Shown here: positions 625 to 36,850 of the stretch, piece by piece
Numbering within the stretch: the stretch's first letter is position 1
Layout: each line of letters begins with the position of its first letter
Source of the DNA: Oscillospiraceae bacterium
GTDB taxonomy: Bacteria > Bacillota > Clostridia > Oscillospirales > SIG627
Length of the DNA: 64,000 nucleotides
Direction of reading: 5' to 3'
Assembly (NCBI GenBank): GCA_015065085.1
Contig: SVQW01000007.1
Coordinates: 991 to 64,990 of the forward strand
Notes under the pieces: model-generated
What the model was told of the DNA's origin: nothing
Seen by the model: the letters and a program-made list of their open reading frames with translations, nothing else
Database searches by the model: none
Made by a program: the position numbers and the translations under genes

Positions 625-808
625 GTGATATTCTGTGCCTTTCGCACAGAGTGATATTTCCCATTCGGGAAGTGATATTGAAATCTTGCGATTTCAGTGT
701 TATTTTATTCGCCATAAACTGCCGGAGGCAATATCTATCACTGCGAAGCAATAAAACTCGCCGTAAGGCGAATAAAACTGCCCAAGTGTCCTTGAGAACA
801 CTTGGGCA
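625..808. repeat. Array of six different short hairpins punctuated by conserved linkers (GTGATATT x3, GTGTTATT x1, ATAAAAC x2)
   Basis: GTGATATT occurs at 625, 651 and 672, and GTGTTATT at 697. The first three octamers are each followed directly by a different self-complementary insert: CTGTGC/GCACAG, TCCC/GGGA and GAAATC/GATTTC. After the variant octamer come TGCC-GGA-GGCA (720-730), then ATAAAAC at 751 and 772, each followed by a hairpin. Confidence 0.6.
771..808 (-). terminator. Rho-independent terminator candidate for the 12-gene minus-strand operon
   Basis: An 11-bp stem, TGCCCAAGTGT (779-789) / ACACTTGGGCA (798-808), lies 27 nt after the transporter stop. On the minus strand it is followed by GTTTTATT. 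Confidence 0.55.
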
Positions 809-834: not shown

Positions 835-2076
835 TCAGAACAATATTATTAAGAACTGTGAAACCAACACCACCGCGATAAGTGCGATGGGATAGGTTGC
901 GGCATAAGCCGCGGCAACGTCCTCGGTACCTGCGACATTGATAAGTGTGCCCAGTGCGGGAGTACTTGTCATACCGCCGGTGATAGAGCCCAAATTGTTG
1001 AAAAGGCTGAGCTTGAGCACATATTTTGCAAAGATAAAACCGATAATCATGGGGAATATGGTCATTATCGCGCCGTAGATAAAGTACATGGGGTCAAAGT
1101 ATTCAATGAACTTTGCACCGCCTGCAACACCTGCGCCGATAAGGAACAGCATAAGACCCAATTCACGGAACACCTTGAGAGTGTGCTCGTCGGGCATAAG
1201 GCTTATTTTGCCTATTCTGCCGAAGTGACCGAATATAAGGGCAACCAAAAGACATCCGCCTGTGGTGGTAAGGCTGAAGGTAGTGCCGGAAAGGCCGTTT
1301 GCGGTAAGGGGGATTTTGATCATACCCACAAATATACCTACAATAGCCGCAAGTGCAAATGCGCAAAATCCGAAGCCGTCAAGGTGAATGAGCTTGCCTG
1401 CGTATGCTTTCTTTTCGGCACCGTCGCTGGCGATGGTGAGTTTTTCACGCTCTTCTGCCATGTTTGCACGGCAGAACTTGGGGACCAGCTGTACAAAGAG
1501 AACAACACCCAATACACCGAAAATGTAGGCTATGCCGTGTCCTACCGAAACCGCATTTTCATAAATGGGGTTAACAGTGTCCTTTGCTGCACTGAATGCC
1601 GGGGTGGAGGTAAGGGAGCCCGACAAAAGACCTACTACCATAGCGGTGAATTCCTCGTGATTTGCTTCACCCAATGCGCGTCCTGCGTAAATACATCCGA
1701 CAGCCGAGATACCGCCTGCTATAATGATGATAAGACCCAGAAGAACATAGGATTTGAAGTTTTTCTTCATGTTGCTGAAGAACTTGGGACCTGCAATGAA
1801 GCCTACCGAGGTAACAAACAGGATAAGTCCCAGGTTTTCAATTATTTTAAGAGCATTGGTGGTGTAAGAAACGGAGCTTGTAACAAGCTGTGCATCAAGC
1901 TGCTTGTAGAAAAGGCATCCGAAAACAAGGGCAACGATAAATACGCCCGCAGTACCGAGCGAGACACCTTTTATGGTGATTCTTCCTAATGCATAGCCTG
2001 CCGCTGCAATGGCAAGCACGCAGAACATCAGAAAAGAAATGCCGGTTATGGAGATTACTCCGCCGAATAAAGTCAT
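835..2076 (-). CDS. AAE-family (AspT/YidE/YbjL/SucE-type) transporter, short form without RCK_C domains; putative dicarboxylate exporter
   Basis: A polytopic membrane protein made of two homologous halves, with the C-terminal motif GSITGGMTSTPALG. I placed the start at the internal Met (MTLFGGVISITG) because AAGGGGGAAATCATA precedes the ATG at 2076 and the upstream gene ends at 2090. Confidence 0.7.
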   Translation of the reverse strand: MTLFGGVISITGISFLMFCVLAIAAAGYALGRITIKGVSLGTAGVFIVALVFGCLFYKQLDAQLVTSSVSYTTNALKIIENLGLILFVTSVGFIAGPKFFSNMKKNFKSYVLLGLIIIIAGGISAVGCIYAGRALGEANHEEFTAMVVGLLSGSLTSTPAFSAAKDTVNPIYENAVSVGHGIAYIFGVLGVVLFVQLVPKFCRANMAEEREKLTIASDGAEKKAYAGKLIHLDGFGFCAFALAAIVGIFVGMIKIPLTANGLSGTTFSLTTTGGCLLVALIFGHFGRIGKISLMPDEHTLKVFRELGLMLFLIGAGVAGGAKFIEYFDPMYFIYGAIMTIFPMIIGFIFAKYVLKLSLFNNLGSITGGMTSTPALGTLINVAGTEDVAAAYAATYPIALIAVVLVSQFLIILF

Positions 2077-2089
2077 TATGATTTCCCCC

Positions 2090-3688
2090 TTAGTGTTTTC
2101 TGGTGTAATCGGGGAGAAGCTTGGGAGATACGGCGTCGGTAGCGATGCCTGCGCTCTCGATTTCTGCCTCGAACTTAGCAATGTGGTCAAGTGTGAGCTT
2201 GCCTACCTTAACATCCTTGCACTTAGCCGCCGCGCTCTTACCTGCACCGCGTCCGAATACGATGATGTCAAGAAGCGAGTTACCCATCAGACGGTTTCTG
2301 CCGTGGATACCGCCCACAGCCTCACCTGCTACAAACAGATTTTCAACATTGGTGGTCATGCCGTCGGGAGTGATGTCAAGACCGCCGTTCTGGTAGTGCA
2401 GAGTGGGGTATACGATGATAGGCTCTTTGCGGATGTCGATACCGTATTTGCCGAACATACGCATCATTGCGGGGATTCTCTTTTCGATAGTGCCTTCGCC
2501 ACCTATCTTTTCAATCATGGGAGTGTCCAGCCATACACCCAGGCCGCTTCCTGTTTCAACGCCGTTTTTACGGTCGTTGCACTCGCGGATAATGGAAGCC
2601 GCCGCAACGTCACGGGTTTCAAGGGGATGAACGAAAACCTCGCCCTTGCAGTTTATAAGCTTTGCGCCCAGAGAACGAACCTTTTCGGTAACCAGTGCAC
2701 CGAAAATCTGCTCGGGGTATGCCGCACCTGTGGGATGATACTGCAGAGTTTCAGCATAAAGCAGAGAAGCACCTGCTCTGTAACCCAGCACCAATCCGTC
2801 GGCGGTTGCACCGTAGTGGTTGGAGGTGGGGAAGCCCTGGTAGTGCATACGTCCTGCACCGCCGGTAGCGATTATAACGGTTTTAGCCTTTGCTACCATA
2901 AGCTCTTTTGTTTCCATATTCATAAGCACTGCGCCTGCCGCCTTGCCGTTTTCGTCAAGTATAAGCTCGATTGCCGCAGTGAAATCTACAACGGGAATTT
3001 CGCGGTTTAAAACCTCGTCGCGCAGGGTACGCATGATTTCCGCACCGGAATAGTCCTTTGCGGCATGCATACGCTTGCGGGATGTACCGCCGCCATGGGT
3101 GGTAATCATGTTGCCCTCGGCGTCCTTGTCAAACTCAACACCCAATTCGCTCAGCCATGCGATTGCATCGGGAGCGTCACAAACCAGCTTGGAAAGCAGG
3201 TCACGCTTTGCGGCAAAGTGACCGCCGCCGAAAGCGTCTACAAAATGGATTGCGGGAGAGTCATTGGGCTTGTCAGCCGCCTGAATACCGCCCTCCGCCA
3301 TCATTGTATTGGCATCGCCTATGCGAAGCTTTGTAACTATCATAACATTTGCGCCTGCTTCGTGAGCCTCAATGGCTGCGGAAGAGCCTGCACCGCCTCC
3401 GCCGATGATGAGTACGTCAACATCGTAGGTGGGACTTGAAAGGTCGATGTCCTCTGCCTTTATGCGGGCATGAGCCTGCAGCATTTCTGCCAGTTCCTTG
3501 GGCACCTTCTGACCCTTGTTGGGACCGATTTTGAGTTCTTCAAACTCGTCTGCCTTGTAGTCGGGGTGATAAGCCTTAAGAAGGTCTTCCTTCTGCTGAG
3601 CCGTCATGCGCTGAGGCTCGTAAGCAATATTGGCATCTCTTGCGGCTTCAACCGCTTTGAGGGAATCCATCAGATTTTCAGAATACAT
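2090..3688 (-). CDS. Fumarate reductase/succinate dehydrogenase-type flavoprotein (FrdA/TfrA-like, soluble, non-covalent FAD predicted)
   Basis: GxGxxG (VLIIGGGGAGSSAA) follows an N-terminal extension of about 95 aa. FrdA/SdhA-like motifs are present: TSNHYGATADG, LVTEKVRSLGA, LQYHPTG and GRNRLMGNSLLDIIVFGR. The position of the covalent-FAD His reads N-T. RBS AAGGAGG. Confidence 0.8.
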   Translation of the reverse strand: MYSENLMDSLKAVEAARDANIAYEPQRMTAQQKEDLLKAYHPDYKADEFEELKIGPNKGQKVPKELAEMLQAHARIKAEDIDLSSPTYDVDVLIIGGGGAGSSAAIEAHEAGANVMIVTKLRIGDANTMMAEGGIQAADKPNDSPAIHFVDAFGGGHFAAKRDLLSKLVCDAPDAIAWLSELGVEFDKDAEGNMITTHGGGTSRKRMHAAKDYSGAEIMRTLRDEVLNREIPVVDFTAAIELILDENGKAAGAVLMNMETKELMVAKAKTVIIATGGAGRMHYQGFPTSNHYGATADGLVLGYRAGASLLYAETLQYHPTGAAYPEQIFGALVTEKVRSLGAKLINCKGEVFVHPLETRDVAAASIIRECNDRKNGVETGSGLGVWLDTPMIEKIGGEGTIEKRIPAMMRMFGKYGIDIRKEPIIVYPTLHYQNGGLDITPDGMTTNVENLFVAGEAVGGIHGRNRLMGNSLLDIIVFGRGAGKSAAAKCKDVKVGKLTLDHIAKFEAEIESAGIATDAVSPKLLPDYTRKH

Positions 3689-3702
3689 TGTCAGCCGCCT
3701 CC

Positions 3703-4377
3703 TTATTTCTCAATCTCTCTGGTGTTGTAAAGCTCTTTGATTTCGTCAATGGGCTTTTGCATAAGCGCTTCGATAAGCTCGGTAAAGGTACCGTCCTTGA
3801 TTTCCTTTACGCGGTCCTCGAGGTGGTCGCACTTGGGAGCAAGGTATTTACCGTTGAGACGGCGGGCAAGCATTGCAACCTGGGGATGAGAAATACCCGC
3901 AGGGCATCTGGCGGAGCAAACACCGCACATTACGCAGTCAAAGGATTCCTCGGCGCACTTTTCGTATTCACCGCGCTGAGCGTAAGCGATGTACTGCATT
4001 ACATTAAGCTCCTGAGTACAGCTCTTGGTGCAGGCGTTACAGCCGATACAAGCGTAAATCTCAGGGTAAAGCTGCATCATTATCTGCTCGGTGGGCTTGA
4101 TTTTTTCCATATCGTAAACCTGTTTTACCAGCGGGAAGAAGGGCAGGGTTGCGATATACATATCGTTTTCAACCTTGGTCTGGCAGGCAAGACAGCTCTT
4201 TAATTCTCTGTCGCCCTTGATTCTGTAAATGGTGGCACATGCACCGCAGAAGCCGTTACGGCATCCGCAGCCGCGAACCAGCTGATAGCCGGCATATTCC
4301 ATCGCGTTCATTATAGTCAGATTGTCCGGAACTTCATATTTTTTTCCGAACAGAAATATATTAACCATATTTTCCAT
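3703..4377 (-). CDS. FrdB/SdhB-like iron-sulfur protein ([2Fe-2S] N-domain plus two Cys-cluster motifs)
   Basis: GCGCRNGFCGACA...C at the N-terminus is plant-type 2Fe-2S-like. It is followed by CIGCNACTKSC and CVMCGVCSARCP. RBS AAGGGGGAA. Confidence 0.75.
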   Translation of the reverse strand: MENMVNIFLFGKKYEVPDNLTIMNAMEYAGYQLVRGCGCRNGFCGACATIYRIKGDRELKSCLACQTKVENDMYIATLPFFPLVKQVYDMEKIKPTEQIMMQLYPEIYACIGCNACTKSCTQELNVMQYIAYAQRGEYEKCAEESFDCVMCGVCSARCPAGISHPQVAMLARRLNGKYLAPKCDHLEDRVKEIKDGTFTELIEALMQKPIDEIKELYNTREIEK

Positions 4378-4394
4378 GTTAATTTCCCCCTTTA

Positions 4395-5228
4395 TTAATA
4401 TTCGTCAGGAAGCTCTTCCAGCTCATCGCATCTGAATACAGGACCATCCTTGCAAACATACTTTGCACCGATGTTGCATCTTCCGCACTTGCCGATACCG
4501 CATTTCATTTTCAGCTCCATGGTGGTGTAAACCTGGGTTTTGTCGAAGCCCAGTGACATAAGACCGTCCAAGGTGAACTTAATCATAATGGGAGGTCCGC
4601 ATATGATGGCGGTTTTGGTGGTGTCAAAGCCCAGCTCCTTGACGTAGTTGGGAACAAAGCCTACATGGCCGTCCCAGCCCTCCTGCTCGCGGTCGATGGT
4701 GAGGTGAACGTCAATTCCATCATCCTTGAGCCACTCATTGAGTATCTCATCGTAATCCACGAGGTCGTCCTTGCTTCTGGAGCCGTAAACTATATCGATT
4801 TTGCCGTAGCGGTCGCGGTAGTGACGGCAGTAGTTAATTACAGAGCGAAGCGGTGCAAGACCGATACCGCCCGCGATGAATAACAGGTCTTTTCCTGCAA
4901 AAACGTCATCAACGGGGAAGTTTTTGCCGTAAGGTCCGCGGATGGTTATCTGCTGACCGACTGTCGCCTGATGTAACCATTCGGTGACACATCCGCATTT
5001 TTTGATGGAAAATTCCATAAATTCCGTATTGGTGGGAGATGAGGTTATGGAGAACATCGCCTCGCCTACGCCGGGGATGGAAAGCATTGCACACTGACCG
5101 GGCATATGCTCAAACGCCTTTTTTCCGTCGGGTGTTACCACGCGGAAGGTCTTGACATCGGGAGTGTCCATGCGTATGTCGGTGATAACGCCGACTTTGG
5201 GAATGAGTGCTTCGGTGCGGTTATTCAT
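4395..5228 (-). CDS. FAD/NAD(P)-binding oxidoreductase with C-terminal [2Fe-2S] (AsrB / sulfhydrogenase-gamma / FlxA-like)
   Basis: It has the ferredoxin-reductase-type layout, with GLAPL in the NAD-binding region and the C-terminal motif CGIGKCGRCNIG...C. It overlaps the upstream gene by 8 nt. Confidence 0.75.
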   Translation of the reverse strand: MNNRTEALIPKVGVITDIRMDTPDVKTFRVVTPDGKKAFEHMPGQCAMLSIPGVGEAMFSITSSPTNTEFMEFSIKKCGCVTEWLHQATVGQQITIRGPYGKNFPVDDVFAGKDLLFIAGGIGLAPLRSVINYCRHYRDRYGKIDIVYGSRSKDDLVDYDEILNEWLKDDGIDVHLTIDREQEGWDGHVGFVPNYVKELGFDTTKTAIICGPPIMIKFTLDGLMSLGFDKTQVYTTMELKMKCGIGKCGRCNIGAKYVCKDGPVFRCDELEELPDEY

Positions 5229-6246
5229 CAGCCTTACCTCCTAATTTCTTCATAACCTTGACAATGTTCATGGAAATGGGGCATTTATTCAGACAACGTC
5301 CGCAGCCCACACAGCTGAACATGCCGTCATTGTTTTCGGGGTAGTAAACCAGCTTGTGCATAAAGCGCTGACGGAAGCGTTCAAGCTGAGAGTTTCGGGA
5401 GTTGCCGTGTGCCATTTTGGTGAAATCGGAGTACATGCAGGAATCCCAGCAACGGTATCTGATTACGCCCTTACCCGTTTTGAAGTCCTTTATATCGTAG
5501 CACTGGCAGGTGGGGCATACAAATGTACATGTACCGCATCCCAGACAGCTTTCGCTCAGCTCCTTCCACTCGGGAGCATTAAAGAATTTATCCGTCTTGC
5601 CTGCACCGAAAGCATCGGCTTTCAGGTCTGCAAGAGGAAGCTTTTTCATTATTTCACGGGTTTTTGCCTGACTTTCCTTAACGGCACTGTCATCTGCCGT
5701 CTCGGTAACGCTTTCTATAAGCGCCAATGCCTTTTCACCCTTTTCGGTGTTGGCGTTGAAGTACATATATCCGTCACATTTCCACATGGAAACATCGCCC
5801 ATGGGGTTTGCCGCATCAATTCCGAAGGTCTGACAGAAGCAGGTTTCTCCGGGACGGCTGCACGCCAGAGAGAAGATTATGCCGTGCTCACGGCGGGTGG
5901 CGTAGTAGCTGTCGTAAGGCTCGGTGAGGAATACGCGATCAAGTACGTCAAAGCTCTTTACATCGCAGGCGCGTACGCCGAATACGATGAAGTCCTCGCT
6001 TTCCTTACGGGTGTCTATAATTTCTATGTTTGTACCCTCGGTTTTGAATTCCATCAGGTTTTCGCTCTGGGGGAAGAAGAAATCCTTGGGGCTGCGGTTG
6101 GTGTTGAGCGCCCCCGACATTTGAGTGCCTTTTTCCCACTGTTTATATTCCGCGCCTGCCTCAGCGTCTACGGGGAGATACAGCGTCATGGCGTCACTGA
6201 GCTTTTCAAAAACCGCTTCAAGAGATGTGAGTGAACACTTACGCAT
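5221..6246 (-). CDS. 4Fe-4S protein of the AsrA / sulfhydrogenase-beta / FlxB-like type
   Basis: Motifs CLGCGTCTFVCPTCQCYD...RCWDSC...CVGCGRCLNKCP. I chose the start at the ATG at 6246 (9 nt after AAGGAGAG). The ATG at 6252 is an alternative, and the longer ORF-track start at 6336 lies inside the upstream gene. Confidence 0.7.
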   Translation of the reverse strand: MRKCSLTSLEAVFEKLSDAMTLYLPVDAEAGAEYKQWEKGTQMSGALNTNRSPKDFFFPQSENLMEFKTEGTNIEIIDTRKESEDFIVFGVRACDVKSFDVLDRVFLTEPYDSYYATRREHGIIFSLACSRPGETCFCQTFGIDAANPMGDVSMWKCDGYMYFNANTEKGEKALALIESVTETADDSAVKESQAKTREIMKKLPLADLKADAFGAGKTDKFFNAPEWKELSESCLGCGTCTFVCPTCQCYDIKDFKTGKGVIRYRCWDSCMYSDFTKMAHGNSRNSQLERFRQRFMHKLVYYPENNDGMFSCVGCGRCLNKCPISMNIVKVMKKLGGKADE

Positions 6247-7234
6247 TTTCATTCTCTCCTTTCGCAAGGGCATCTGCCGCTTCAATGTCGTTAAGGGTGT
6301 AATCGATAAGCGGTGCACGGCTTCCTGCCTCGGCACCTGCCTGATAGTCGCCGTAGAAGGAATTGATGTCCTTTATGAACTTGCGGTTGAGAAGATGCAG
6401 AGGAATGGACTGGGGACAAACGCGGGAGCATTCTCCGCAGTCGGTACATCTTCCCGCAACGTGGAATGCGCGTATAATATGGAACATTTTTTCTTCAAAG
6501 CTGTCGGAAATCGCCTTGTTTTCAACACCCGATTCGGGGTTGTCAAATACGCACTTTTCGCAGGTGCAGGCAGGACATACGTTACGGCAGGCGTTGCAAC
6601 GGATGCAACGGGATAATTCGTTCTGCCAGAATGCGAATTTTTCGTCGGGGGTCAGCTTTTCAAGACGTGCCACCTCGTCAAAGCGCGCACTGTCAATAAC
6701 CTCGCCGTCCTCGCCTATCAGCTCGTCGTATGCCACATGCTTTTTGCTCTTGCACACACGGCATCTTTCGGCGATAACGTCACTGAACTTCACGGTTTTT
6801 ACACCGTCGTAAAGAGTTTCGATGTTGAGATTTTCGCCCTCACAGGTGATTTTCACAATACCGTCGGCAAGCTTTTTAACCGTTTCGGTATCAGCCATGC
6901 CCTCGCAGGGGATACCCACGATGTATACCTTTTCACGGGGGATTCTGTGCTCGGTTACAAGCTGATTGAAGCTGTATGTATCGCAGGGCTTGAGGAACAC
7001 AAGGATTTTGCCCTCAACCTTCGAGGTGAGATTTATAAGGTATTTTGAAAGGTTTGCACCGCAGAAATCTCCGAATACAAAATCCTTCTTTATTTCGTCA
7101 CAGCTCTCGAAAAAGCCGGGAGTGACATCATATGCAAACTCACCGTTTTTCCAGCCCACAACACACTGAACAGTGCCGTTTTCCATAAGCTCGCAGGCTT
7201 TAGCTATGAGCATATCGGTTGTTATTTTTTGCAT
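6239..7234 (-). CDS. Iron-sulfur protein (FlxC / FrhB-related, 4Fe-4S dicluster)
   Basis: Motifs CIRCNACRNVCPACTCEKC and CTDCGECSRVCP. It sits between MvhD-like and AsrA-like genes and overlaps both neighbours. Confidence 0.6.
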   Translation of the reverse strand: MQKITTDMLIAKACELMENGTVQCVVGWKNGEFAYDVTPGFFESCDEIKKDFVFGDFCGANLSKYLINLTSKVEGKILVFLKPCDTYSFNQLVTEHRIPREKVYIVGIPCEGMADTETVKKLADGIVKITCEGENLNIETLYDGVKTVKFSDVIAERCRVCKSKKHVAYDELIGEDGEVIDSARFDEVARLEKLTPDEKFAFWQNELSRCIRCNACRNVCPACTCEKCVFDNPESGVENKAISDSFEEKMFHIIRAFHVAGRCTDCGECSRVCPQSIPLHLLNRKFIKDINSFYGDYQAGAEAGSRAPLIDYTLNDIEAADALAKGENENA

Positions 7235-7659
7235 CTTAAGTCCTCCAATCTCTTGTTTTCACCCAGTGCGGCAACAGCCTCGGTAAACTCGTTCATGGTC
7301 GCCGCGAATTTAGCACCCTCGGCGGCAGAGACCCATTCCACACGGGTACGCTCTTTTTCTATGCCCAGATATTCAAGCATGGAGAACAAAAGAGCCATTC
7401 TTCGTCTTGTATAGTAGTTGCCGGAGGTGTAGTGGCAGTCACCGGGATGGCATCCGCAAAGAATTACGCCGTCGGCACCGCGCTGAAATGCGCGAAGTAT
7501 AAACATGGGGTTTACGCGGCAGGAGCAGGGAACTTTTATGATTTTGACATTTTCGGGATAAGCCAGTCGGTTGTTTCCCGCAAGGTCAGCGCCTGCGTAA
7601 GAGCACCAGTTACAGCAGAAAGCCACAATCAGAGGCTTGTATTCACCGTTTATTTGCAT
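7222..7659 (-). CDS. MvhD/FlxD-type hydrogenase-delta-like iron-sulfur protein
   Basis: FCCNWCSYAGADLAG...VPCSCRV...CGCHPGDCHY is the pattern I recognise for the MvhD/FlpD family. It overlaps the hdrA stop by 10 nt. Confidence 0.85.
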   Translation of the reverse strand: MQINGEYKPLIVAFCCNWCSYAGADLAGNNRLAYPENVKIIKVPCSCRVNPMFILRAFQRGADGVILCGCHPGDCHYTSGNYYTRRRMALLFSMLEYLGIEKERTRVEWVSAAEGAKFAATMNEFTEAVAALGENKRLEDLRCKK

Positions 7660-9644
7660 ATTGCATCTACCTCCGCCATGATTTGTTTGTTTAAGAAGCC
7701 CTTAAGGTCCATAGCACCCGACGGGCATGCAACGGTACAGCATCCGCAGCCCTGACATACCGCTTCGTTGACAGATGCAACGCGGCGTATCTTGGTGGTT
7801 CTGTCGGGCATACGGAATTCCTTGTCCACGTAGGTGATTGCGCCGTAGGGACATACCTTTTCGCAGGAGGAGCAGCCGTTACACATAGCCTCGTTACTGG
7901 AAGCAACACAGGGGTTGCCTGTCAACTTGTCCTTAGCCAGAAGTCCGATAACCTTGGATGCCGCCGCACCTGCCTGAGCAACGGTTTCGGGGATATCCTT
8001 GGGGCCCTGGCAGGTACCCGAAAGGAACACACCTGCTGTGGGGCTTTCAACGGGACGCAGCTTGGGATGGGCTTCGGTAAAGAAGTCGTTGGTGTCCATG
8101 CTGGCGGTCAGCATGGTAGCAAGAGGTCTGGCAGACTTGTCAGGCTCGATAGCCGCCGCAAGTACCACCAGGTCTGCGGCAATGGTAAGCTGTTTGTTGT
8201 CAATAAGGTCGGAAGCCTTTACAATAAGCTTGTCGCCCTCGGGTGCAACCTTACCTACCATACCTTTTATATAGTGTACGCCGTATTCCTCAACTGCACG
8301 GCGGTAGAACTCGTCAAAGTTCTTGCCGGGGGTACGCACGTCGATGTAGAATACGTATACGTCGGTGTCGGGATATTTATCTCTTGTAAGCATTGCGTGC
8401 TTAGCGGTGTACATACAGCATATCTTGGAGCAGTACTCCTTGCCTTTTTCGGCACATGCGGCACATCTGGAGCCTACGCACTGTACAAACACGATGGTGT
8501 GGGGGTGCTTGCCATCGGAGGGACGAAGAAGCTTGCCCGCAGAGGGACCTGCCGCGTTGGTGAGACGCTCAAATTCCAGAGAGGTTATAACGTCCTTGGA
8601 CTGATTATAAGCGTATTCGTCAAATTTCTCCATGCTGATGGGATTGAAGCCGGTAGCCGCAACGATTGCGCCGTACTTTTCTTCTATTATCTCATCCTTC
8701 TGGGTGTAATCGATAGCACCTGCGGTACATACCTTGGAGCAGATACCGCACTTGCCTGTTTTGAGCATGGTACAATAGTCCGCATCGATGGTTGCAACCT
8801 TGGGAACAGCCTGAGCGAAGGGAATGTAGATTGCACGTCTGTTGTCCATGCCGAGATTGAACTCGTTGGGCACCTTCTTCTGAGGACATTTTTCGGTACA
8901 CAGACCGCAGCCGGTACATACATCCTCTTTTACAAAGCGTGCTTTTTTCTTTATTTTAACGTCGAAGTTACCCACAAAGCCCTTGATTTCGGTAACCTCG
9001 CTGTATGAGAAAATTCTTATCTTATCGTTCTGAGCCACATCCACCATTTTAGGTGTCAGGATACAAGCCGCACAGTCCAACGTGGGGAAGGTTTTATCAA
9101 GCTGAGCCATTTTACCGCCGATGGTGGGCTTGATTTCCACGATGTCAACCGGGAAGCCGGCATCTGCGATGTCGAGGGCTGTCTGGATACCTGCGATACC
9201 GCCGCCGATAACAAGCGCACGCTTGGTAACGGGGCTTTCACCGGGGGTAAGAGGAGCGTTGAGGTTAACCTTTGCAACCGCCGCCTTGCCCAGAATAATT
9301 GCTTTTTCGGTACCTGTTGCCATGTCCTTATGTACCCAGGAGCACTGCTCGCGGATGTTTGCAATCTCTACCATGTAGGGATTTAAGCCTGCCGCCGCCG
9401 CTGTCTTGCGGAAGGTGGCCTCGTGCATTCTGGGGGAGCAGGAGCATACTACTATACCTGTGAGCTTGTGCTCTTTAACGGCGTCCTTGATAATATCCTG
9501 ACCTGCCTGGGAGCACATATACTGATAATTTGTGGAAAAGACAACGCCCGGCTCATTTTTAAGAGCTTCGGAAACTGCCTGTACATCCACCGTGCCGGCG
9601 ATATTGCTTCCGCACCAGCACACGAAAACGCCTATTCTCTGCAT
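7650..9644 (-). CDS. hdrA: HdrA-like FAD/Fe-S subunit (heterodisulfide reductase A family)
   Basis: 664 aa. The N-terminus is Cys-rich (VFVCWCGSN), followed by a GGGIAG dinucleotide fold, internal ferredoxin-type CxxCxxCxxxCP motifs and a C-terminal 2x[4Fe-4S] domain. Confidence 0.85.
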   Translation of the reverse strand: MQRIGVFVCWCGSNIAGTVDVQAVSEALKNEPGVVFSTNYQYMCSQAGQDIIKDAVKEHKLTGIVVCSCSPRMHEATFRKTAAAAGLNPYMVEIANIREQCSWVHKDMATGTEKAIILGKAAVAKVNLNAPLTPGESPVTKRALVIGGGIAGIQTALDIADAGFPVDIVEIKPTIGGKMAQLDKTFPTLDCAACILTPKMVDVAQNDKIRIFSYSEVTEIKGFVGNFDVKIKKKARFVKEDVCTGCGLCTEKCPQKKVPNEFNLGMDNRRAIYIPFAQAVPKVATIDADYCTMLKTGKCGICSKVCTAGAIDYTQKDEIIEEKYGAIVAATGFNPISMEKFDEYAYNQSKDVITSLEFERLTNAAGPSAGKLLRPSDGKHPHTIVFVQCVGSRCAACAEKGKEYCSKICCMYTAKHAMLTRDKYPDTDVYVFYIDVRTPGKNFDEFYRRAVEEYGVHYIKGMVGKVAPEGDKLIVKASDLIDNKQLTIAADLVVLAAAIEPDKSARPLATMLTASMDTNDFFTEAHPKLRPVESPTAGVFLSGTCQGPKDIPETVAQAGAAASKVIGLLAKDKLTGNPCVASSNEAMCNGCSSCEKVCPYGAITYVDKEFRMPDRTTKIRRVASVNEAVCQGCGCCTVACPSGAMDLKGFLNKQIMAEVDAICK

Positions 9645-9659
9645 TATGTCTTTTCCTCC

Positions 9660-10049
9660 TTATTTATTATATTTTCTCAAAGCGCTGACAATAGCCTGCT
9701 GAGGCATTTCCTCGTCCAGAAGCGCGGGAATATCGTCGGGCTTGAGGTGGTTTGCGCCCTGCTTGCGTACTGCCGCAAGACGTACCGCTTCCACCAGCTT
9801 GGCAGGCTCAACGGCACGGGGGCAACGCTCAACACAGGCAAAGCAGGTAAGGCACTGATATATGGATTTTGAGTTGAGAAGCGGCTCAATGTCGCCGTTT
9901 TCAACCATGTAAACAAACTGATGGGGATGATATTCCATCTCGTTGTAGGCGGGACAGGTGGCGGAGCACTTGCCGCAACGCATACACTTGCGGGGATTTA
10001 CACCGCTCATGCGGATAATTTCATCCTTAAGACCGTTTTTATTGTGCAT
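9660..10049 (-). CDS. hdrC: HdrC-like 4Fe-4S subunit
   Basis: Motifs CMRCGKCSATCP and CLTCFACVERCP. The start is set at the ATG at 10049, preceded by AAGGAGGAACAAG. The ORF-track start at 10082 lies inside hdrB. Confidence 0.8.
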   Translation of the reverse strand: MHNKNGLKDEIIRMSGVNPRKCMRCGKCSATCPAYNEMEYHPHQFVYMVENGDIEPLLNSKSIYQCLTCFACVERCPRAVEPAKLVEAVRLAAVRKQGANHLKPDDIPALLDEEMPQQAIVSALRKYNK

Positions 10050-10836
10050 CTTGTTCCTCCTTGACACCCAGTGCCTCGGCAAGAAGCTCTGTGAAATATA
10101 CTACGGGAACGGTGGAGCCGTTCTTTTCAAGGTTGTACTTGCAAAGGGGGCAGGCGGTAACGATGATATCTGCACCGTGGCTTTGTGCACTGCCGAAAAC
10201 CTTACTGCTGCGCGCCTTGGCGCTGTCGGCATTCTCCAGTGCTATGTAACCGCCGCAGCATTCGTTGCGGAAAGGATATATAACGGGCTCACCGCCCAGA
10301 GCGCGGATAAGGTTTTCCATAATCGTGGGGTTTTCGGGGTCGTCCATCTTCATGACACCGCTGGGGCGGAGAAGCAGACAGCCGTAATATGCACCGATTT
10401 TTTTGCCCTCAAGGGGCTTTACAACCGCTTCTTTTACCTTGTCAAAACCGATTTCGTCACGGATCAGCTCCAAAAGATGAAGCACCTGTGTGGTGCCGTC
10501 GTAGGGTCCGTCTGCGCCCATGTAGTTATTGACATGGGAACTGAACTCGGCATCGTTTTGCATGGCGTGATTGGTTTGCTTTATAACATTGTGGCAGGCG
10601 GAGCACACACTGACAAGGGGCTGACCTTTATCCTGTGCCGCCTTGAGCGCTCTGACAGAGGAGAGCTTTGTTGCAATTTCGTCACGCGAAGTGGTGAAAA
10701 CGCCGCCACAGCACTGCCAGTTTTCTATTTCTTCAAGACATACACCCAGCTTTTCCATGCTTTTTCTGGCGTATATGTCAAGCATTTTGGCTTTTGTCTT
10801 TAAAGTACAGCCGGGAAAGTAGGATACTGTTTTCAT
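10039..10836 (-). CDS. hdrB: HdrB-like subunit with two CCG domains
   Basis: The N-terminus YFPGC and two CCGG/CCGGV motifs give the duplicated Cys-rich domain. The start is ambiguous: the ATG at 10836 is 13 nt from AGGAGG, and the ATG at 10848 is 1 nt from it. Confidence 0.8.
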   Translation of the reverse strand: MKTVSYFPGCTLKTKAKMLDIYARKSMEKLGVCLEEIENWQCCGGVFTTSRDEIATKLSSVRALKAAQDKGQPLVSVCSACHNVIKQTNHAMQNDAEFSSHVNNYMGADGPYDGTTQVLHLLELIRDEIGFDKVKEAVVKPLEGKKIGAYYGCLLLRPSGVMKMDDPENPTIMENLIRALGGEPVIYPFRNECCGGYIALENADSAKARSSKVFGSAQSHGADIIVTACPLCKYNLEKNGSTVPVVYFTELLAEALGVKEEQDAQ

Positions 10837-10864
10837 ACTTCCTTTCATACCTCCTGATAGTAAT

Positions 10865-10899
10865 TTGCAAATTGCAATTTGCAATTTGCAATGCGCAAT
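10865..10899. repeat. Heptamer tandem repeat (TTGCAAA TTGCAAT TTGCAAT TTGCAAT GCGCAAT) just upstream of the hdrB RBS
   Basis: Read directly from the sequence: five 7-bp units. TTGCAA is itself a palindrome. Confidence 0.9.
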
Positions 10900-10998
10900 T
10901 ATGGAAGATTTTTCTTTTCAAAATCTATTGTTGAAATTCTTCGCGTGCATGATGTTTATGTTACGCTTGGCACGCGAATTGGCTCGGCGCTTACGCCG

Positions 10999-12375
<1,377 letters not shown>

Positions 12376-12403
12376 TTATATTTCCTCCGATTTGTAATTC
12401 GAT

Positions 12404-13348
12404 TTATATTTCAACGCTTTTTAAAGTTTCCTTAAGCTTTTGTGCGCTGGCGCGGAAGTAGACTATTTCTTCGTCATTGAGAGGCATCATAATCTTATTG
12501 CGTATTACCATGTTGCCCATGTTGCACAGAGTGCTCAGACATACATCCTCAATACCGTATTCGCCGTGGAACATGGTTGAAACCGTCATGGTAGTACCTA
12601 CCGCACCCATAAGTGCCTTGCAGATGTGGCACACGGAGGCGGAAACGGCATAGAAGGTTGCACCCTTGTTGGCAATAACGGTAGCACCGGATTTTCTTAC
12701 GTAATCCTCTACCTCGGGATAGTTAAGCTCGGGCAGAACCTTGTCGTTCCTTGCGAATGCCTTGCCGCATTCCTGAATGGGAATGTTGGAAATGTTGGCA
12801 AGAGACCAGGGCACAAAGGAGGAATCCCCGTGCTCGCCCAGTACATAAGCATGGATGTTGTTCTGGTTTATTGCGTAGTATTCAGACAGGTAGGAACGCA
12901 GTCTTGCAGAATCAAGAAGCGTACCCGAGCCGATGATACGGTTTTCGGGAATACCCGAATACTTGGTGAATACATAGGTCAGTATGTCAACAGGGTTGCT
13001 GACGATTATGTAAGAGGCTTCGGGGGCGTATTTGGTTATTTTGGGAGTGATGTCCTTGATAATGTTGATGTTTGTCTGTGCCAGCTCCAGACGGGTCTGG
13101 CCGGGCTTTCTCGCCACACCGGAGGTGATTATTACAATATCGCTTCCCGACGCGTCGTGATATTCTCCCGAGTAAATGGAGCAGGGACTGCAGAAGGAAA
13201 CGCCCTGGCGGATATCCATTGCCTCGCCGAACGCCTTGTTTTCGTTGATATCAATCATAACAATTTCGGATGCTATGCCTGCAACCGTGAGAGTATATGC
13301 GATGGTGGAGCCAACATTGCCGGCACCGATGACGGTGATCTTGCTCAT
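12404..13348 (-). CDS. LDH/MDH-superfamily 2-hydroxyacid dehydrogenase; Arg at the substrate-specificity position suggests malate dehydrogenase
   Basis: GAGNVGS NAD fold, catalytic region GEHGDS, NPVDILT. ITSGVARKPGQTRLEL aligns with ITAGANQKPGETRLDL of B. stearothermophilus LDH, so Gln102 is replaced by Arg. Confidence 0.8.
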   Translation of the reverse strand: MSKITVIGAGNVGSTIAYTLTVAGIASEIVMIDINENKAFGEAMDIRQGVSFCSPCSIYSGEYHDASGSDIVIITSGVARKPGQTRLELAQTNINIIKDITPKITKYAPEASYIIVSNPVDILTYVFTKYSGIPENRIIGSGTLLDSARLRSYLSEYYAINQNNIHAYVLGEHGDSSFVPWSLANISNIPIQECGKAFARNDKVLPELNYPEVEDYVRKSGATVIANKGATFYAVSASVCHICKALMGAVGTTMTVSTMFHGEYGIEDVCLSTLCNMGNMVIRNKIMMPLNDEEIVYFRASAQKLKETLKSVEI

Positions 13349-13426
13349 GGTGAATACCTCTTCTTAATCGAACCTTTAAAGGCCCTGTATTTTTTTCAAT
13401 CTATAAATAGGAAATTTCGCCGCGAA

Positions 13427-13444
13427 TTGTCTAAAAATTAACAA
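13427..13444 (-). promoter_or_regulatory. Rex-like operator candidate upstream of the mdh-fumC-hdr-flx-frd operon
   Basis: On the operon strand it reads TTGTTAATTTTTAGACAA, against the Clostridial Rex consensus TTGTTAAnnnnTTAACAA (12 of 14 specified positions). It lies about 80 nt upstream of the start codon and overlaps a TAGACA -35-like hexamer. Confidence 0.35.
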
Positions 13445-13923
13445 TCTTTTGACGAACAAACAGGCAGTACCGCACAATGCGCGTCCCAACGGCACTACAC
13501 AGCCTTGCCTGAAAGACATATTTCCCCGCCGAAGAAAATCCTCGGCACTATAAAACATTATACTATATTTATAGGAGAATATCAAGTACTTTTTCAAAAA
13601 ATGTGGAATCTTTTTTTAGATTATTTTACATATTTTTTACTCGCTCTTGTGCAATGTAAACAAAACAGCATTTTTTGTCAGAAAAAAAGGATTTTGCAAG
13701 AGCGCTTTGCTGTTCTTGCAATACGCTGTGTGCCGTAAAATGTTACGGCAAAAAACTCGAATGGCAAACATTGGAAAATATGTGAATTTATATTTTTGTT
13801 TACGACTAATTCATAATTCTGTGATACAATACACAATTGTGTTTGCAGGAAAATGCAAAAAAATCAATAAAAATGTAAAAAATCTGCTTAATTATACAAC
13901 TATTTTAGTAGAGGAAAACGTAA

Positions 13924-15498: not shown

Positions 15499-16614
15499 AT
15501 GATAAAAATTGATTTTTGCGGTAATATGGTTTCCCGTCTGGGCTTCGGTGCGATGCGTCTGCCCGTAAAAGAGGATCAGACAATAAATTTTGAAAAAGCC
15601 GAGGCGCTTTTTGACTATGCAATGGCCAACGGAGTGAATTATTTTGACACCGCTTTCGGCTATCATAACGGCAAATCCGCCGAGTTTGTGGGCAAATGCC
15701 TGTCAAAATATGACCGTTCGAGCTACTATGTGGCAAACAAAATGCCCGCATGGAACTTAAAAGCTCCCGGGGATTTGCACACTATTTTTGAAAAGCAATT
15801 AAGTGACCTTAAAACCGATTACATCGACTATTACCTGCTTCATTCCATGACACCGGACACCTGGAAAACCTTTAAGGCTATGGGCGCTTATGAATTCTGC
15901 CTTGATAAAAAGAAAAAGGGTATAATAAAAAATCTGGGCTTTTCGTTCCACGGCACGCCTGAGCTGCTTAAAGAGCTGCTGGACTTTGCCGAGTGGGATT
16001 TCGTGCAGATACAGTTTAATTATCTTGATTATTATTCTGCAAATGCCAAGCTTGAATATGATATGATAACCGCCCGCGGTATACCCGTAATCGTCATGGA
16101 GCCGGTACGCGGCGGAAAATTGGCTGACATTTCCCCGCGCGCACGGGCGGAGATAGATAAGGTGTCGCCTGATACGTCCTCTGCCGCCATGGCATTGAGA
16201 TTTGCAGGTAGCTTTGAAAATGTTTCCGTGATACTCAGCGGTATGTCAAACGAGGCGCAGGTAAAGGAAAATATAGAGCTGTTTTCATCCGAACTCTCCC
16301 TTGGCGAAAAAGAAATGACGGCACTGTATAATGCCGCCAACGAAATGCGCCGTATTGAAACCATCCCATGCACCGCCTGCAGCTATTGCACCGAGGTGTG
16401 CCCAATGGGAATTGATATCCCCTTTATTTTCGATGCATATAATAAGTATCTGGAAACCAAGGATATGGGTGAGTTCAAAAATGCTTATGCCGAAAAATGC
16501 TCCGAGGGAAAACGTGCTCCGGATTGTATAAAATGTGAAGCCTGCGTTGCAAAATGCCCCCAGAGTATAAGCATCCCGGACATACTGGCGCTTATGCCAA
16601 AGCTTGATAAATAA
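15499..16614 (+). CDS. Aldo/keto reductase fused to a C-terminal 2x[4Fe-4S] ferredoxin domain
   Basis: AKR N-terminus (LGFGAMRLP, YFDTAFGYHNGKSE-like), with C-terminal CTACSYCTEVCP and CIKCEACVAKCP. RBS AAGGAG. Confidence 0.8.
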   Translation: MIKIDFCGNMVSRLGFGAMRLPVKEDQTINFEKAEALFDYAMANGVNYFDTAFGYHNGKSAEFVGKCLSKYDRSSYYVANKMPAWNLKAPGDLHTIFEKQLSDLKTDYIDYYLLHSMTPDTWKTFKAMGAYEFCLDKKKKGIIKNLGFSFHGTPELLKELLDFAEWDFVQIQFNYLDYYSANAKLEYDMITARGIPVIVMEPVRGGKLADISPRARAEIDKVSPDTSSAAMALRFAGSFENVSVILSGMSNEAQVKENIELFSSELSLGEKEMTALYNAANEMRRIETIPCTACSYCTEVCPMGIDIPFIFDAYNKYLETKDMGEFKNAYAEKCSEGKRAPDCIKCEACVAKCPQSISIPDILALMPKLDK

Positions 16615-17152: not shown

Positions 17153-19156
17153 ATGAGAATTGCTCTCGCAGGAAACCCCAATTCCGGTAAAACCACAATG
17201 TACAATGCCCTGACCGGCAGTAATGAAAAGGTGGGCAACTGGGCGGGTGTTACCGTAGACAAAAAGGAACGCCCCATCAAAAAAGCCTACATAAACGGCA
17301 GTAATGAGCTTATCGCGGTAGACCTTCCCGGCGCTTATTCCATGTCCCCCTTTACATCCGAGGAGAGCATTACCAGCGCCTATGTCAAGAATGAAAACCC
17401 CGATGCAATCATCAATATTGTTGATGCCACCAACCTCAGCCGAAGCCTGTTCTTCACGACACAGCTTATGGAGCTGGGTGTGCCGGTGGTGGTTGCGCTT
17501 AACAAGAGTGATATAAATTCCAAAAAGCAAACTAAAATAGACGTTGCGGCGCTTTCTGAAAGTCTGGGCTGTCCCGTTGTTGAAACCGTTTCCACCTCGG
17601 CAGACGGTCTTAAGGAAGTGGTAAAGGCGGCTGAGGAAGCGGCAGGAAAGGGTCAGAAGGCTCCATATGTTCAGGGCGAAACAGACCTTACAAGCAAAGA
17701 GGCGGTTGTGGCGGCTGACCGCAAGCGCTTTGAGTTTGTAAAAGGCATTGTCAAAAAGGTTGAAACCCGTAAGGTTCTTACAAAGGACAGAAACTTCGGC
17801 GATAAAATAGATGCTGTTCTCACCAACAAATGGCTGGGTATACCGATATTTGCAGTTGTTATGTGGCTGGTTTTCCAGATTTCCCAGGTATGGGTGGGCA
17901 CTCCCGTTGCAGACCTTCTGGTAGGCTGGCTTGAAAGCTTCCAGGGCTGGGTGGGCGAGCTTCTGGCAGATGCTTCTCCTCTGCTTTACGCATTGCTTGT
18001 TGACGGTGTCATCGGCGGTGTTATCGCGGTAATCGGATTTTTACCGCTGGTAATGGTAATGTACTTCCTCATCGCACTGCTGGAGGATTGCGGATATATG
18101 TCCCGTGTGGCAGTAGTGCTGGACCCCATTTTCAAAAAGGTCGGTCTTTCGGGTAAATCCGTTATTCCCTTTGTTATCACCATCGGTTGTGCCGTTCCCG
18201 GTATTATGGCGAGCCGTACCATCAGAAACGAGCGTGAACGCAGAGCAACAGCAATGCTTTCTCCCTTTATGCCCTGCGGTGCCAAAATTCCAGTAATCGC
18301 ACTTTTTGCAGGCGCGTTCTTTGATGACGCAGGTTGGGTAAGCACTGTTATGTATCTCAGCGGTATCGTACTCATATTCATAGGCGCACTGCTGGTAAAC
18401 GCAATAACAGGTGCGCGAAAACGCAAATCCTATTTTATTATCGAGCTTCCCGAATATAAAGTCCCCTCTTTCTGGGGCGCATTCAAATCCATGTGCGGAC
18501 GCGGCTGGGCTTACATAGTCAAGGCGGCTACCATCATTCTGCTGTGTAATACCGCAGTTCAGATAATGCAGAGCTTCACCTGGTCCTTTGCCGTTGCCGA
18601 GACATCGGATGTATCCATTCTTGCCTGGGTTGCACGTCCCTTCGCATATATCCTTGTTCCCATCGTGGGTGTTCTTTCCTGGCAGCTTGCCGCGGCGGCG
18701 GTTACGGGCTTTATTGCCAAGGAAAACGTTGTAGGCACACTGGCGGTATGCTTTGTAGGTCTTGAAAATCTCATTAATGCAGATGAGCTGGCTCTCGTTG
18801 AGGGCGCGGGTGCGCAGGCGGCAGGCATTATGGCAATCACCAAGGTTGCGGCGCTGGCTTACCTGATGTTCAACCTGTATACACCTCCCTGCTTTGCGGC
18901 AATCGGCGCTATGAATGCCGAAATGAAGAGCGCAAAGTGGCTGTGGGGCGGTATAGGTCTCCAGATGGGCGTGGGATATACCGTGTCATATTTCGTTTAC
19001 ACCATCGGAACCCTCATTACCGATGCACAGAGCCTTAACATAGGCACTGCACTGGGCGGTCTTTTGGTTGTGGCGGTATTTGTTATAATAATTGTATCAC
19101 TCATCAATTCCACCAACAAGAAAATCAAAGAGGAATACGCACTCAAAAAAGCGTAA
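17153..19156 (+). CDS. feoB: Ferrous iron transporter FeoB
   Basis: N-terminal G-domain (GNPNSGKTT, DLPG, NKSD), followed by a polytopic membrane domain. 667 aa. Confidence 0.95.
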   Translation: MRIALAGNPNSGKTTMYNALTGSNEKVGNWAGVTVDKKERPIKKAYINGSNELIAVDLPGAYSMSPFTSEESITSAYVKNENPDAIINIVDATNLSRSLFFTTQLMELGVPVVVALNKSDINSKKQTKIDVAALSESLGCPVVETVSTSADGLKEVVKAAEEAAGKGQKAPYVQGETDLTSKEAVVAADRKRFEFVKGIVKKVETRKVLTKDRNFGDKIDAVLTNKWLGIPIFAVVMWLVFQISQVWVGTPVADLLVGWLESFQGWVGELLADASPLLYALLVDGVIGGVIAVIGFLPLVMVMYFLIALLEDCGYMSRVAVVLDPIFKKVGLSGKSVIPFVITIGCAVPGIMASRTIRNERERRATAMLSPFMPCGAKIPVIALFAGAFFDDAGWVSTVMYLSGIVLIFIGALLVNAITGARKRKSYFIIELPEYKVPSFWGAFKSMCGRGWAYIVKAATIILLCNTAVQIMQSFTWSFAVAETSDVSILAWVARPFAYILVPIVGVLSWQLAAAAVTGFIAKENVVGTLAVCFVGLENLINADELALVEGAGAQAAGIMAITKVAALAYLMFNLYTPPCFAAIGAMNAEMKSAKWLWGGIGLQMGVGYTVSYFVYTIGTLITDAQSLNIGTALGGLLVVAVFVIIIVSLINSTNKKIKEEYALKKA

Positions 19157-36847: not shown

Positions 36848-36850
36848 GCC

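Follow-up and report, generated by a model that had tools for sequence, protein, structure and literature searches.

A stretch of 64,000 nucleotides from an Oscillospiraceae bacterium (GTDB lineage Bacteria; Bacillota; Clostridia; Oscillospirales; SIG627; NCBI GenBank assembly GCA_015065085.1, contig SVQW01000007.1, positions 991 to 64,990 of the forward strand), referred to in its full length as the window in the following, carries an operon in which genes for a soluble fumarate reductase-like enzyme are joined to genes for electron transfer proteins of the Hdr/Flx type. Twelve consecutive genes are encoded on the minus strand from position 13348 down to position 835 in the order mdh, fumC, hdrB, hdrC, hdrA, mvhD, flxC, flxB, flxA, frdB, frdA and a gene for an AAE-family transporter (Table 1). 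The listing of open reading frames bears out a preliminary description, made from the letters of the window alone, with respect to the extent of the gene run, its tight packing and the presence of one spacer of about 160 nt; equally, the assignment of protein domains with Pfam and NCBIfam models agrees with the naming of HdrB, HdrC, HdrA, MvhD, the Flx-like proteins, the FrdB-like protein and the flavoprotein in that description. The operon is a further example, from an uncultured gut or rumen lineage of Clostridia, of an operon kind that has been predicted before.

Junction spacings were computed with the likely true starts, taken as the first plausible ATG past the upstream stop codon. Tight packing is seen in 11 of the 12 genes, with neighbours overlapping by 8-14 nt or lying 13-28 nt apart, and the junction between fumC and hdrB is the sole loose one. 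The same lengths of FlxB (341 aa) and of the transporter (413 aa) result when genes are called independently on an identical contig from a JGI metagenome. Large open reading frames on the plus strand over the operon (for example 2009-3010 and 8067-9008) were dismissed as antisense shadows of the minus-strand genes. None of the 11 soluble operon proteins has a convincing membrane-spanning segment, with a borderline stretch only in the NAD-binding N-terminal fold of Mdh. As described earlier, the redox proteins come with neither a membrane anchor nor a quinone subunit.

Table 1. Genes and sequence features of the operon in the direction of transcription; the last column gives the junction with the following gene.
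Feature	Coordinates	Strand	Length (aa)	Domains and motifs	Junction with following gene
Best sigma-70-like promoter site, TTGATA-17-TATAAT	13557..13585	-		11/12 consensus matches, pattern match only	
Malate dehydrogenase, LDH-like (mdh)	12404..13348	-	314	Ldh_1_N/C domains	28-nt gap
Class II fumarate hydratase FumC (fumC)	10999..12375	-	458	Lyase_1 + FumaraseC_C; TIGR00979	162-nt gap (10837-10998)
HdrB (hdrB)	10039..10836	-	265	Two CCG domains; two complete motifs (C...CCG...CxxC twice)	11-nt overlap
HdrC, 2x[4Fe-4S] (hdrC)	9660..10049	-	129	Two 4-Cys motifs, HdrC-type dicluster	15-nt gap
HdrA, full length (hdrA)	7650..9644	-	664	N-terminal Cys, FAD, inserted ferredoxin and C-terminal ferredoxin domains	10-nt overlap
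MvhD/FlxD (mvhD)	7222..7659	-	145	FlpD domain, 189 bits	13-nt overlap
FlxC-like Fe-S protein (flxC)	6239..7234	-	331	Two 4-Cys cluster motifs; weak FrhB-like N-terminal region	8-14-nt overlap
FlxB-like AsrA/ShyB/HydB-type Fe-S protein (flxB)	5221..6252	-	~341-343	Fer4_22 domain	8-nt overlap
FlxA-like AsrB/ShyC-type protein (flxA)	4395..5228	-	277	FAD_binding_6, NAD_binding_1, DHODB_Fe-S_bind	17-nt gap
FrdB-like Fe-S subunit (frdB)	3703..4377	-	224	Fer2 + dicluster	14-nt gap
FrdA-like flavoprotein (frdA)	2090..3688	-	532	FAD_binding_2 over residues 91-472	13-nt gap
AAE-family (AspT/YidE/SucE-type) transporter, short	835..2076	-	413	2x Asp-Al_Ex (PF06826), TIGR01625	
Two terminator-like hairpins, each followed by a T run	756..796	-		Pattern matches only	

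All seven subunit types of the FlxABCD-HdrABC complex are found with domains as expected. HdrB reaches 129 bits against methanogen HdrB structures, and the models of HdrB (150 bits) and of the SdhE CCG anchor (143 bits) give it nearly the same score. HdrA is homologous over its full length to the bifurcating HdrA of M. wolfeii, whose structure is known (5ODC_A, 683 bits; residues 3-661 aligned to 5-648), and reaches 781 bits on the HdrA2 model, with the HdrA2 model of M. acetivorans being covered jointly by HdrA and the separate MvhD protein. FlxC is a dicluster protein related to FlxB, which in turn is matched by the ShyB model (184 bits) and the AsrA model (145 bits). FlxA carries flavin adenine dinucleotide (FAD), NAD(P)H and [2Fe-2S] domains, is matched by the AsrB and ShyC models and is presumed to be the entry point for reduced nicotinamide adenine dinucleotide (NADH). 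A DsrC-type domain was found neither in the 12 operon proteins nor in the flanking genes scanned, and domain scans of the operon proteins revealed no carrier protein and no thiol-biosynthesis gene encoded in the operon.

The FrdB-like subunit combines a plant-type [2Fe-2S] motif with two full CxxCxxCxxxC motifs, which amounts to 2x[4Fe-4S] and no [3Fe-4S] cluster; the second [4Fe-4S] cluster should replace the quinone-proximal [3Fe-4S] cluster of quinone-linked enzymes. FrdB has no CCG domain, and its match to the TfrB model is confined to model positions 19-98. The FrdA-like flavoprotein begins with an 87-aa N-terminal extension and lacks the Succ_DH_flav_C domain (no match to PF02910), and alignments stop at about residue 490 of 532. 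Its catalytic residues, located by alignment to E. coli SdhA and to M. smegmatis Sdh1 and Sdh2 and given in E. coli FrdA numbering, are all kept, namely His232 (QYHPTG), Thr244-Glu245 (LVTEKVR), Arg287 (ETRDV), His355 (PTLHYQNGG) and Arg390 (HGRNRLMGNS). The six residues are invariant across 80 orthologues, and five of them (not Thr244) remain invariant in a 32-sequence family alignment including methanogen TfrA. Of the four fumarate-site residues proposed in the preliminary description, those in YHPTG and EKVR stand, while 'SNH' is not canonical and the arginine of ETRD and the histidine of LHY had been overlooked. It had been seen correctly, on the other hand, that asparagine (in GDANTMMAEGG) occupies the covalent-FAD position, where SdhA has histidine (KAHT/RSHT). 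This asparagine is present in 79 of the 80 orthologues, and the FAD of the flavoprotein is probably bound non-covalently. One of the 80 orthologues (within L001-L080) has a histidine at this site (GDAHTMMAEGG).

The AlphaFold2 model of FrdA is of high confidence including the N-terminal extension (predicted local distance difference test, pLDDT, 94.2; predicted template modelling score, pTM, 0.92), and the best fold match of the modelled structure in the PDB is E. coli FrdA (1KF6_A), with NadB appearing only at rank 38. Among the NCBIfam models, TfrA (NF004900) gives 337.9 bits with a match spanning positions 5-426 of 546, SdhA/FrdA gives 273 bits and NadB (TIGR00551) 260.9 bits; the flavoprotein stays under all equivalog cut-offs, which are 718 for TfrA and 452.75 for NadB. 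In a neighbour-joining tree of 48 representatives, some of them labelled by NCBIfam or source names, the flavoprotein belongs to a clade (support 199/200) whose soluble members lack the C-terminal domain and have asparagine at the covalent-FAD position, a position taken by lysine in three short forms of the clade. This clade adjoins TfrA-like groups and stands apart from the bona fide NadB representative and from SdhA/FrdA. An identity as L-aspartate oxidase NadB was rejected by the score (260.9 against 452.75) and by the tree, and tree, NCBIfam scores and fold match together place the flavoprotein outside NadB or any other non-fumarate clade, as the initial interpretation demands. Public data hold more than 8000 clusters of the flavoprotein at 90% identity, of which the named ones are called 'FAD-dependent oxidoreductase' or 'FAD-binding protein'; because the orthologues are named only generically, current annotation gives no hint of a fumarate reductase function.

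Upstream of the redox genes, Mdh falls with 339.5 bits against a cut-off of 339 marginally inside the L-lactate dehydrogenase (L-LDH) model of NCBIfam. Its substrate loop GVARKPGQTR carries arginine at the Q102 specificity position, as do all full-length orthologues (43/43); the top PDB match, 1Y6J of C. thermocellum, equally has arginine at position 102, and the LDH of T. maritima has glutamine. A Q102R switch confers oxaloacetate/malate specificity on LDH-like enzymes, and by this arginine the first gene of the operon is predicted to encode an LDH-like malate dehydrogenase (MDH). FumC is assigned with 711.7 bits on TIGR00979, above the cut-off of 664.75; an aspartase was considered and rejected, with the aspartase model staying below its cut-off and the fumarase equivalog cut-off being passed. 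At the other end of the operon, the AAE transporter has at least nine hydrophobic or membrane segments and is the sole membrane-spanning protein of the operon. It is short, without the central TrkA_C domains and with about 190 central positions of the approximately 560-position models unmatched, and is presumed to be a succinate exporter or a dicarboxylate exchanger.

The linkage of these genes is widely conserved. A scan for the flavoprotein across one genome per species found relatives encoded on at least 593 stretches, of which the best 80, 81-90% identical, were analysed. They derive nearly all from metagenome-assembled genomes (MAGs) of gut and rumen Clostridia (Acutalibacteraceae, Oscillospiraceae, Congzhengia, Ructibacterium), with a MAG of the Acutalibacteraceae as the closest genome match (90% identity); the cultured Yeguia hominis NSJ-40 is among these 80 loci (L073) as a carrier of the full operon. 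All twelve proteins were compared with the 80 loci by tblastn, and counts refer to loci with enough flanking sequence. In 52 of the 53 species genomes that could be evaluated, the block hdrB-hdrC-hdrA-mvhD-flxC-flxB-flxA-frdB-frdA is present in full and in the same order, and the linkage, on which the preliminary interpretation had been made to depend, is thus conserved in relatives. The genes mdh and fumC lie upstream in 44 of 51 loci, and the AAE gene lies directly downstream in 49 of 74. The sole exception among the 53 is a Congzhengia MAG (L080, 8079-11605), in which frdB-frdA, 81-84% identical, follow a gene for a CitMHS-family transporter.

Outside the gut clade, frdB and frdA are found in a variety of contexts. 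The closest full-length relative there, with an FrdA 55% identical, stands in a single same-strand run korDABC-hdrA-mvhD-hdrC-hdrB-frdB-frdA without flx genes (L083, 811-9771). Two MAGs of marine Gammaproteobacteria (L081 and L082, 9366-12891) encode frdB-frdA followed by a NuoF-like gene (Complex1_51K + NADH_4Fe-4S), with an FrdA 46% identical and provided with the same N-terminal extension; this arrangement resembles a minimal soluble NADH:fumarate reductase of three subunits. Among more distant clade members, bare frdA-frdB or frdB-frdA pairs occur, as for example in a Prochlorococcus-labelled genome (L086, 8001-10357; frdA-frdB, 43% identical), where no further redox partner is encoded close by, and in some members no FrdB-like gene is called beside the flavoprotein gene. 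In L089 (5250-7433; P0122), FrdB and FrdA are naturally fused into one protein of 727 aa whose gene has only unrelated neighbours, which suggests that a diffusible donor can serve the module. Judged from these neighbourhoods, the distribution shows FrdBA as a self-contained soluble reductase module that would be fed by different input modules. A functional connection between Hdr and Frd is supported because Hdr genes adjoin frdBA in two very different operon layouts, and it is not obligatory because exceptions without Hdr exist.

Parts of the operon resemble several known systems. FlxABCD-HdrABC of D. vulgaris, for which Ramos et al. in 2015 reportedly proposed the DsrC disulfide as acceptor, shares all seven subunit types; unlike there, the operon has no DsrC-like gene, FrdBA is attached and the gene order is reversed (hdrBCA-flxDCBA). 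The thiol:fumarate reductase TfrAB of methanogens, on which Heim et al. are said to have reported in 1998, provides with TfrA the top NCBIfam model, and in the catalytic core the flavoprotein shares about 43% identity with a methanogen TfrA; both enzymes are without the covalent-FAD histidine and both pair a Frd-type module with CCG-type clusters. However, TfrB has its own fused CCG domains, whereas the CCG protein is a separate HdrB here, and TfrA has a C-terminal domain that is missing in the flavoprotein, which has the 87-aa N-terminal extension in addition, reaches 338 bits against a cut-off of 718 and presumably belongs to a system with NADH as donor and not CoM-SH/CoB-SH. A second [4Fe-4S] in place of the [3Fe-4S] cluster is a hallmark of type E enzymes, the type E succinate:quinone reductase (SQR) and methylmenaquinol:fumarate reductase (SdhABE), and is equally found in FrdB, and the 143 bits of HdrB on the SdhE CCG-anchor model are a further likeness; these enzymes are, however, membrane-associated and quinone-linked, and the operon is without a quinone-related subunit.

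The closest precedent as a whole is the 'succinate operon' of P. thermosuccinogenes (CDQ83_RS03365-RS03315), which encodes a fumarate hydratase, seven Flx-Hdr proteins, two fumarate reductase subunits and a putative succinate transporter (Koendjbiharie et al. 2020, PMC7282089). The operon is co-regulated in RNA sequencing with an approximately 4-fold upregulation under CO2 limitation (PMC7282089), and a bifurcating fumarate reductase has been proposed, as cited there, in a preprint (Koendjbiharie & van Kranenburg 2019, 10.20944/preprints201912.0288.v1). By its published description this operon is alike in gene content and gene order and equally belongs to Clostridia, and NADH-dependent fumarate reduction coupled to ferredoxin reduction is proposed for both; an extra leading mdh and the host, an uncultured gut or rumen lineage, set the operon in the window apart. 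P. thermosuccinogenes is not among the best 80 of the at least 593 loci (at least 81% identity). In Candidatus Endoriftia persephone and Thioflavicoccus mobilis, tfrAB is interleaved with flxABCD-hdrABC-korABCD (Rubin-Blum 2019, PMC6315080; Mitchell 2024, PMC11636981), and direct electron delivery to the fumarate reductase in a bifurcating complex has been proposed for the cluster of the tubeworm symbiont (PMC6315080, PMC11636981). The interleaving of a two-subunit soluble Frd/Tfr-like enzyme with Flx-Hdr is shared, and L083 is of the same type as these clusters. On the other hand, they belong to an autotrophic reverse tricarboxylic acid cycle setting with 2-oxoglutarate:ferredoxin oxidoreductase and ATP-citrate lyase and differ in gene order, whereas the operon described here has a fermentative setting with mdh, fumC and an exporter. 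The novelty implied in the preliminary description was consequently overstated, since the same operon and the idea of bifurcation have been published (PMC7282089, PMC6315080, PMC11636981, PMC13147460); its interpretation is supported as the best available one, but the idea is not new.

Among purified enzymes, the nearest analogue in logic is MetFV-HdrABC-MvhD of Moorella thermoacetica, with NADH as donor and, in the account of a review, ferredoxin as the suspected second acceptor (Mock et al. 2014, reviewed in PMC5861303). As in the operon, an Hdr module is wired to a carbon-substrate reductase and not to a disulfide; the catalytic module is, however, MetFV and not FrdBA, and FlxABC are absent. 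Hydrogenobacter thermophilus FrdABCDE is summarised as a five-subunit, soluble, NADH-dependent and irreversible enzyme (Miura et al. 2008, summarised in PMC13147460). As a cytoplasmic FrdAB-type enzyme that uses NADH and has no membrane anchor, it comes closest among the characterised soluble NADH:fumarate reductases, and bifurcation has not been claimed in its case. It is not known to contain HdrA, MvhD or FlxABC, and its accessory subunits are different.

We read the operon as an oxaloacetate to succinate branch with a soluble fumarate reductase joined to an NADH-oxidising, bifurcating Hdr/Flx module, a reading to which we assign a probability of roughly 60%. In the reductive C4 branch, oxaloacetate would be converted to malate by the Arg102 MDH, malate to fumarate by FumC and fumarate to succinate by a cytoplasmic, quinone-independent enzyme, with succinate leaving the cell via the AAE permease. 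The nine redox proteins may form one complex, with NADH as the likely electron donor. NADH would be oxidised at FlxA with its FAD and [2Fe-2S] cluster, and the Fe-S clusters of FlxB, FlxC and FlxD (MvhD) would carry the electrons to the FAD of HdrA, where the electron pair may be split. The low-potential electron would pass through the ferredoxin domains of HdrA to ferredoxin (Fd), and the high-potential electron would move to HdrC, on to the non-cubane clusters of HdrB and the three FrdB clusters, and finally via the FAD of FrdA to fumarate. With bifurcation to ferredoxin as we infer it, the overall reaction would be 2 NADH + Fd(ox) + fumarate -> 2 NAD+ + Fd(red, 2 e-) + succinate. With standard potentials of -320 mV for NADH, +30 mV for fumarate and -420 to -500 mV for ferredoxin, we calculate about -33 to -48 kJ per reaction in the forward direction and an endergonic reverse; by this calculation, the operon is expected to work only toward succinate. 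Reduced ferredoxin would serve H2 formation or ion pumping, and fumarate reduction would in this way yield energy to an organism without quinones. In the same window, AdhE (33129-35771, +) adjoins a HydABC-type [FeFe] hydrogenase cluster (36362-40435, +) with a NuoF-like subunit at 36851-38719 and HydA at 38735-40435. AdhE and HydABC are plausible candidates for sinks of NADH and reduced ferredoxin.

For HdrB, a role as electron conduit is favoured over one as disulfide reductase, because FrdB is without a thiol-oxidising CCG domain, because the operon encodes no carrier, because CCG proteins partner FrdAB-type modules, docking to them in TfrB and in the type E enzymes, and because the scores on the SdhE and HdrB models are nearly equal. 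More tentatively, and with somewhat less confidence than doubt, HdrB as conduit may be part of a first Hdr-type bifurcating enzyme with a C=C double bond as the high-potential acceptor, and the operon may, in view of the at least 593 stretches with a close relative, nearly all from gut and rumen Clostridia, stand for a major unrecognised route to succinate, a quinone-free 'fumarate respiration' that feeds reduced ferredoxin to hydrogenase or Rnf in gut and rumen.

Several observations weigh against the bifurcating NADH-dependent complex. FrdBA is, from the gene neighbourhoods, portable and Hdr not required, as seen in L080, in the pairing with NuoF-like proteins and in the lone or fused forms; in L080, no hdr or flx gene lies within 10 kb upstream of frdBA. 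In Endoriftia, tfrAB was the sole part of the cluster whose expression did not follow the rest (PMC11636981), and a 2026 review still calls the Endoriftia-type complex a suggestion (PMC13147460). A literature search found no biochemical characterisation of any Hdr/Flx-linked fumarate reductase. Ferredoxin coupling of the Moorella MetFV-Hdr complex has, according to the review that covers it, never been demonstrated (PMC5861303), a precedent by which having HdrA does not guarantee bifurcation. Finally, both CCG motifs of HdrB are intact, so that a real disulfide substrate is conceivable. The Moorella complex, as an NADH-oxidising Hdr enzyme with undemonstrated coupling (PMC5861303), equally speaks for a non-bifurcating soluble NADH:fumarate reductase, in which Flx/Hdr merely wire NADH to FrdBA at 1:1 and no ferredoxin is reduced; soluble NADH-dependent fumarate reductases are known with the five-subunit H. 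thermophilus enzyme as an example (PMC13147460), and the gammaproteobacterial frdBA genes are paired with nothing but a NuoF-like NADH module. Yet seven Hdr/Flx genes with a full-length HdrA and both of its ferredoxin domains, kept in 52 of 53 genomes, would be a costly wire where a single NuoF-like subunit does elsewhere, and about 58-67 kJ/mol would go to heat, which makes such an enzyme unlikely here. The intact CCG motifs would equally fit a thiol-mediated process in two steps, a bacterial Hdr plus Tfr, in which Flx-Hdr bifurcates to ferredoxin and to a disulfide carrier, either a small molecule or a DsrC-like protein, and the thiols then drive FrdBA. The nearest named relatives of the flavoprotein are indeed the TfrA subunits of methanogen thiol:fumarate reductase, Flx-Hdr is drawn as reducing 'ferredoxin (and thiols)' in the P. 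thermosuccinogenes paper (PMC7282089) and a DsrC-like route is left open by Mitchell 2024 (PMC11636981). As FrdB with 224 aa has no CCG domain, unlike TfrB with 488 aa, FrdBA has no recognisable thiol-oxidising site; with only one HdrB in the operon and neither a carrier protein nor a thiol-biosynthesis gene encoded in it, the two-step process appears quite improbable.

Still further from the evidence lie readings in which the enzyme is another one or runs the other way. That the flavoprotein is an L-aspartate oxidase or another enoate reductase, with the operon belonging to another pathway, might be thought of since NadB belongs to the FAD_binding_2 family, as do urocanate reductases and further enoate reductases, the orthologues bear no more than the NCBI name 'FAD-dependent oxidoreductase' and the score is under every equivalog cut-off; invariant C4-dicarboxylate-binding and catalytic residues, a tree position apart from NadB, E. 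coli FrdA as the best fold match, an FrdB-type Fe-S partner and the presence of a bona fide fumarase and an Arg102 MDH within the operon, seen in 44 of 51 genomes, make this very improbable. Hardly more credible is an operon for succinate catabolism, in which succinate is oxidised to fumarate and ferredoxin is co-oxidised to make NADH (confurcation). Bifurcating enzymes of the Hdr and Etf type can be reversible, as in the case of lactate dehydrogenase/Etf (PMC5861303), and the AAE transporter could import as well. With succinate at +30 mV and ferredoxin at about -450 mV, however, the mean donor potential of about -210 mV is well above the -320 mV of NAD+/NADH and the reaction is endergonic, the NADH-dependent fumarate reductase is described as irreversible (PMC13147460) and the operon is without genes of a succinyl-CoA or propionate pathway. 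The succinate-oxidising direction was rejected on energetics.

If the bifurcating NADH-dependent fumarate reductase is real, fumarate reduction in quinone-free Clostridia would conserve energy as reduced ferredoxin, and the logic of butyryl-CoA dehydrogenase/Etf would be applied to succinate formation. Hdr-type bifurcation would gain a sixth kind of high-potential acceptor, and bacterial Flx-Hdr outside sulfate reducers would be given a function. Furthermore, redox and H2 balances would be altered in models of gut and rumen fermentation, where carriers are common, and the enzyme has relevance to the engineering of bio-succinate. What is added to the earlier predictions is a clean and complete example, the broad and tight conservation of the linkage, a flavoprotein clade of its own, in which the catalytic residues do not vary and the FAD is apparently non-covalent, the portability of FrdBA and a cultured carrier with Yeguia hominis NSJ-40.

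As to transcription signals, the best sigma-70-like promoter site of the region lies about 210 nt upstream of mdh, and the terminator-like hairpins sit just past the stop codon of the transporter gene. The 5' leader of the operon of about 210 nt (13349-13557, -) contains two GC-rich hairpins, of which the second is followed by a T-rich stretch and looks like an attenuator; the leader has no Rfam match and no conservation by blastn across 80 related loci. Equally, no Rfam match and no blastn conservation among the 80 related loci were found for the 162-nt spacer between fumC and hdrB. It contains four tandem TTGCAAA/TTGCAAT units just upstream of the hdrB ribosome-binding site (10855-10895, -), preceded by a small AT-rich hairpin, and these lineage-specific repeats could be the site of a local regulator or an internal promoter. 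Because the spacer measures only 22-40 nt, including the ribosome-binding site, in most relatives, its length in the window is a local peculiarity. A conserved regulatory RNA in the leader or the spacer was rejected on an Rfam scan of the whole 64-kb window, which gave zero matches, and on the blastn comparison with the 80 loci.

Elsewhere in the window, an aldo/keto reductase fused to a C-terminal 2x[4Fe-4S] domain is encoded at 15499-16614 (+), two genes from the promoter region of the operon, on the opposite strand and transcribed away from it, with FeoB next at 17153-19156. A large serine recombinase with DUF4368 (40791-42452, -) and an N6-adenine methylase/Eco57I-type gene (45039-47603, +) suggest an integrated mobile element or a restriction-modification island downstream of the hydrogenase genes.

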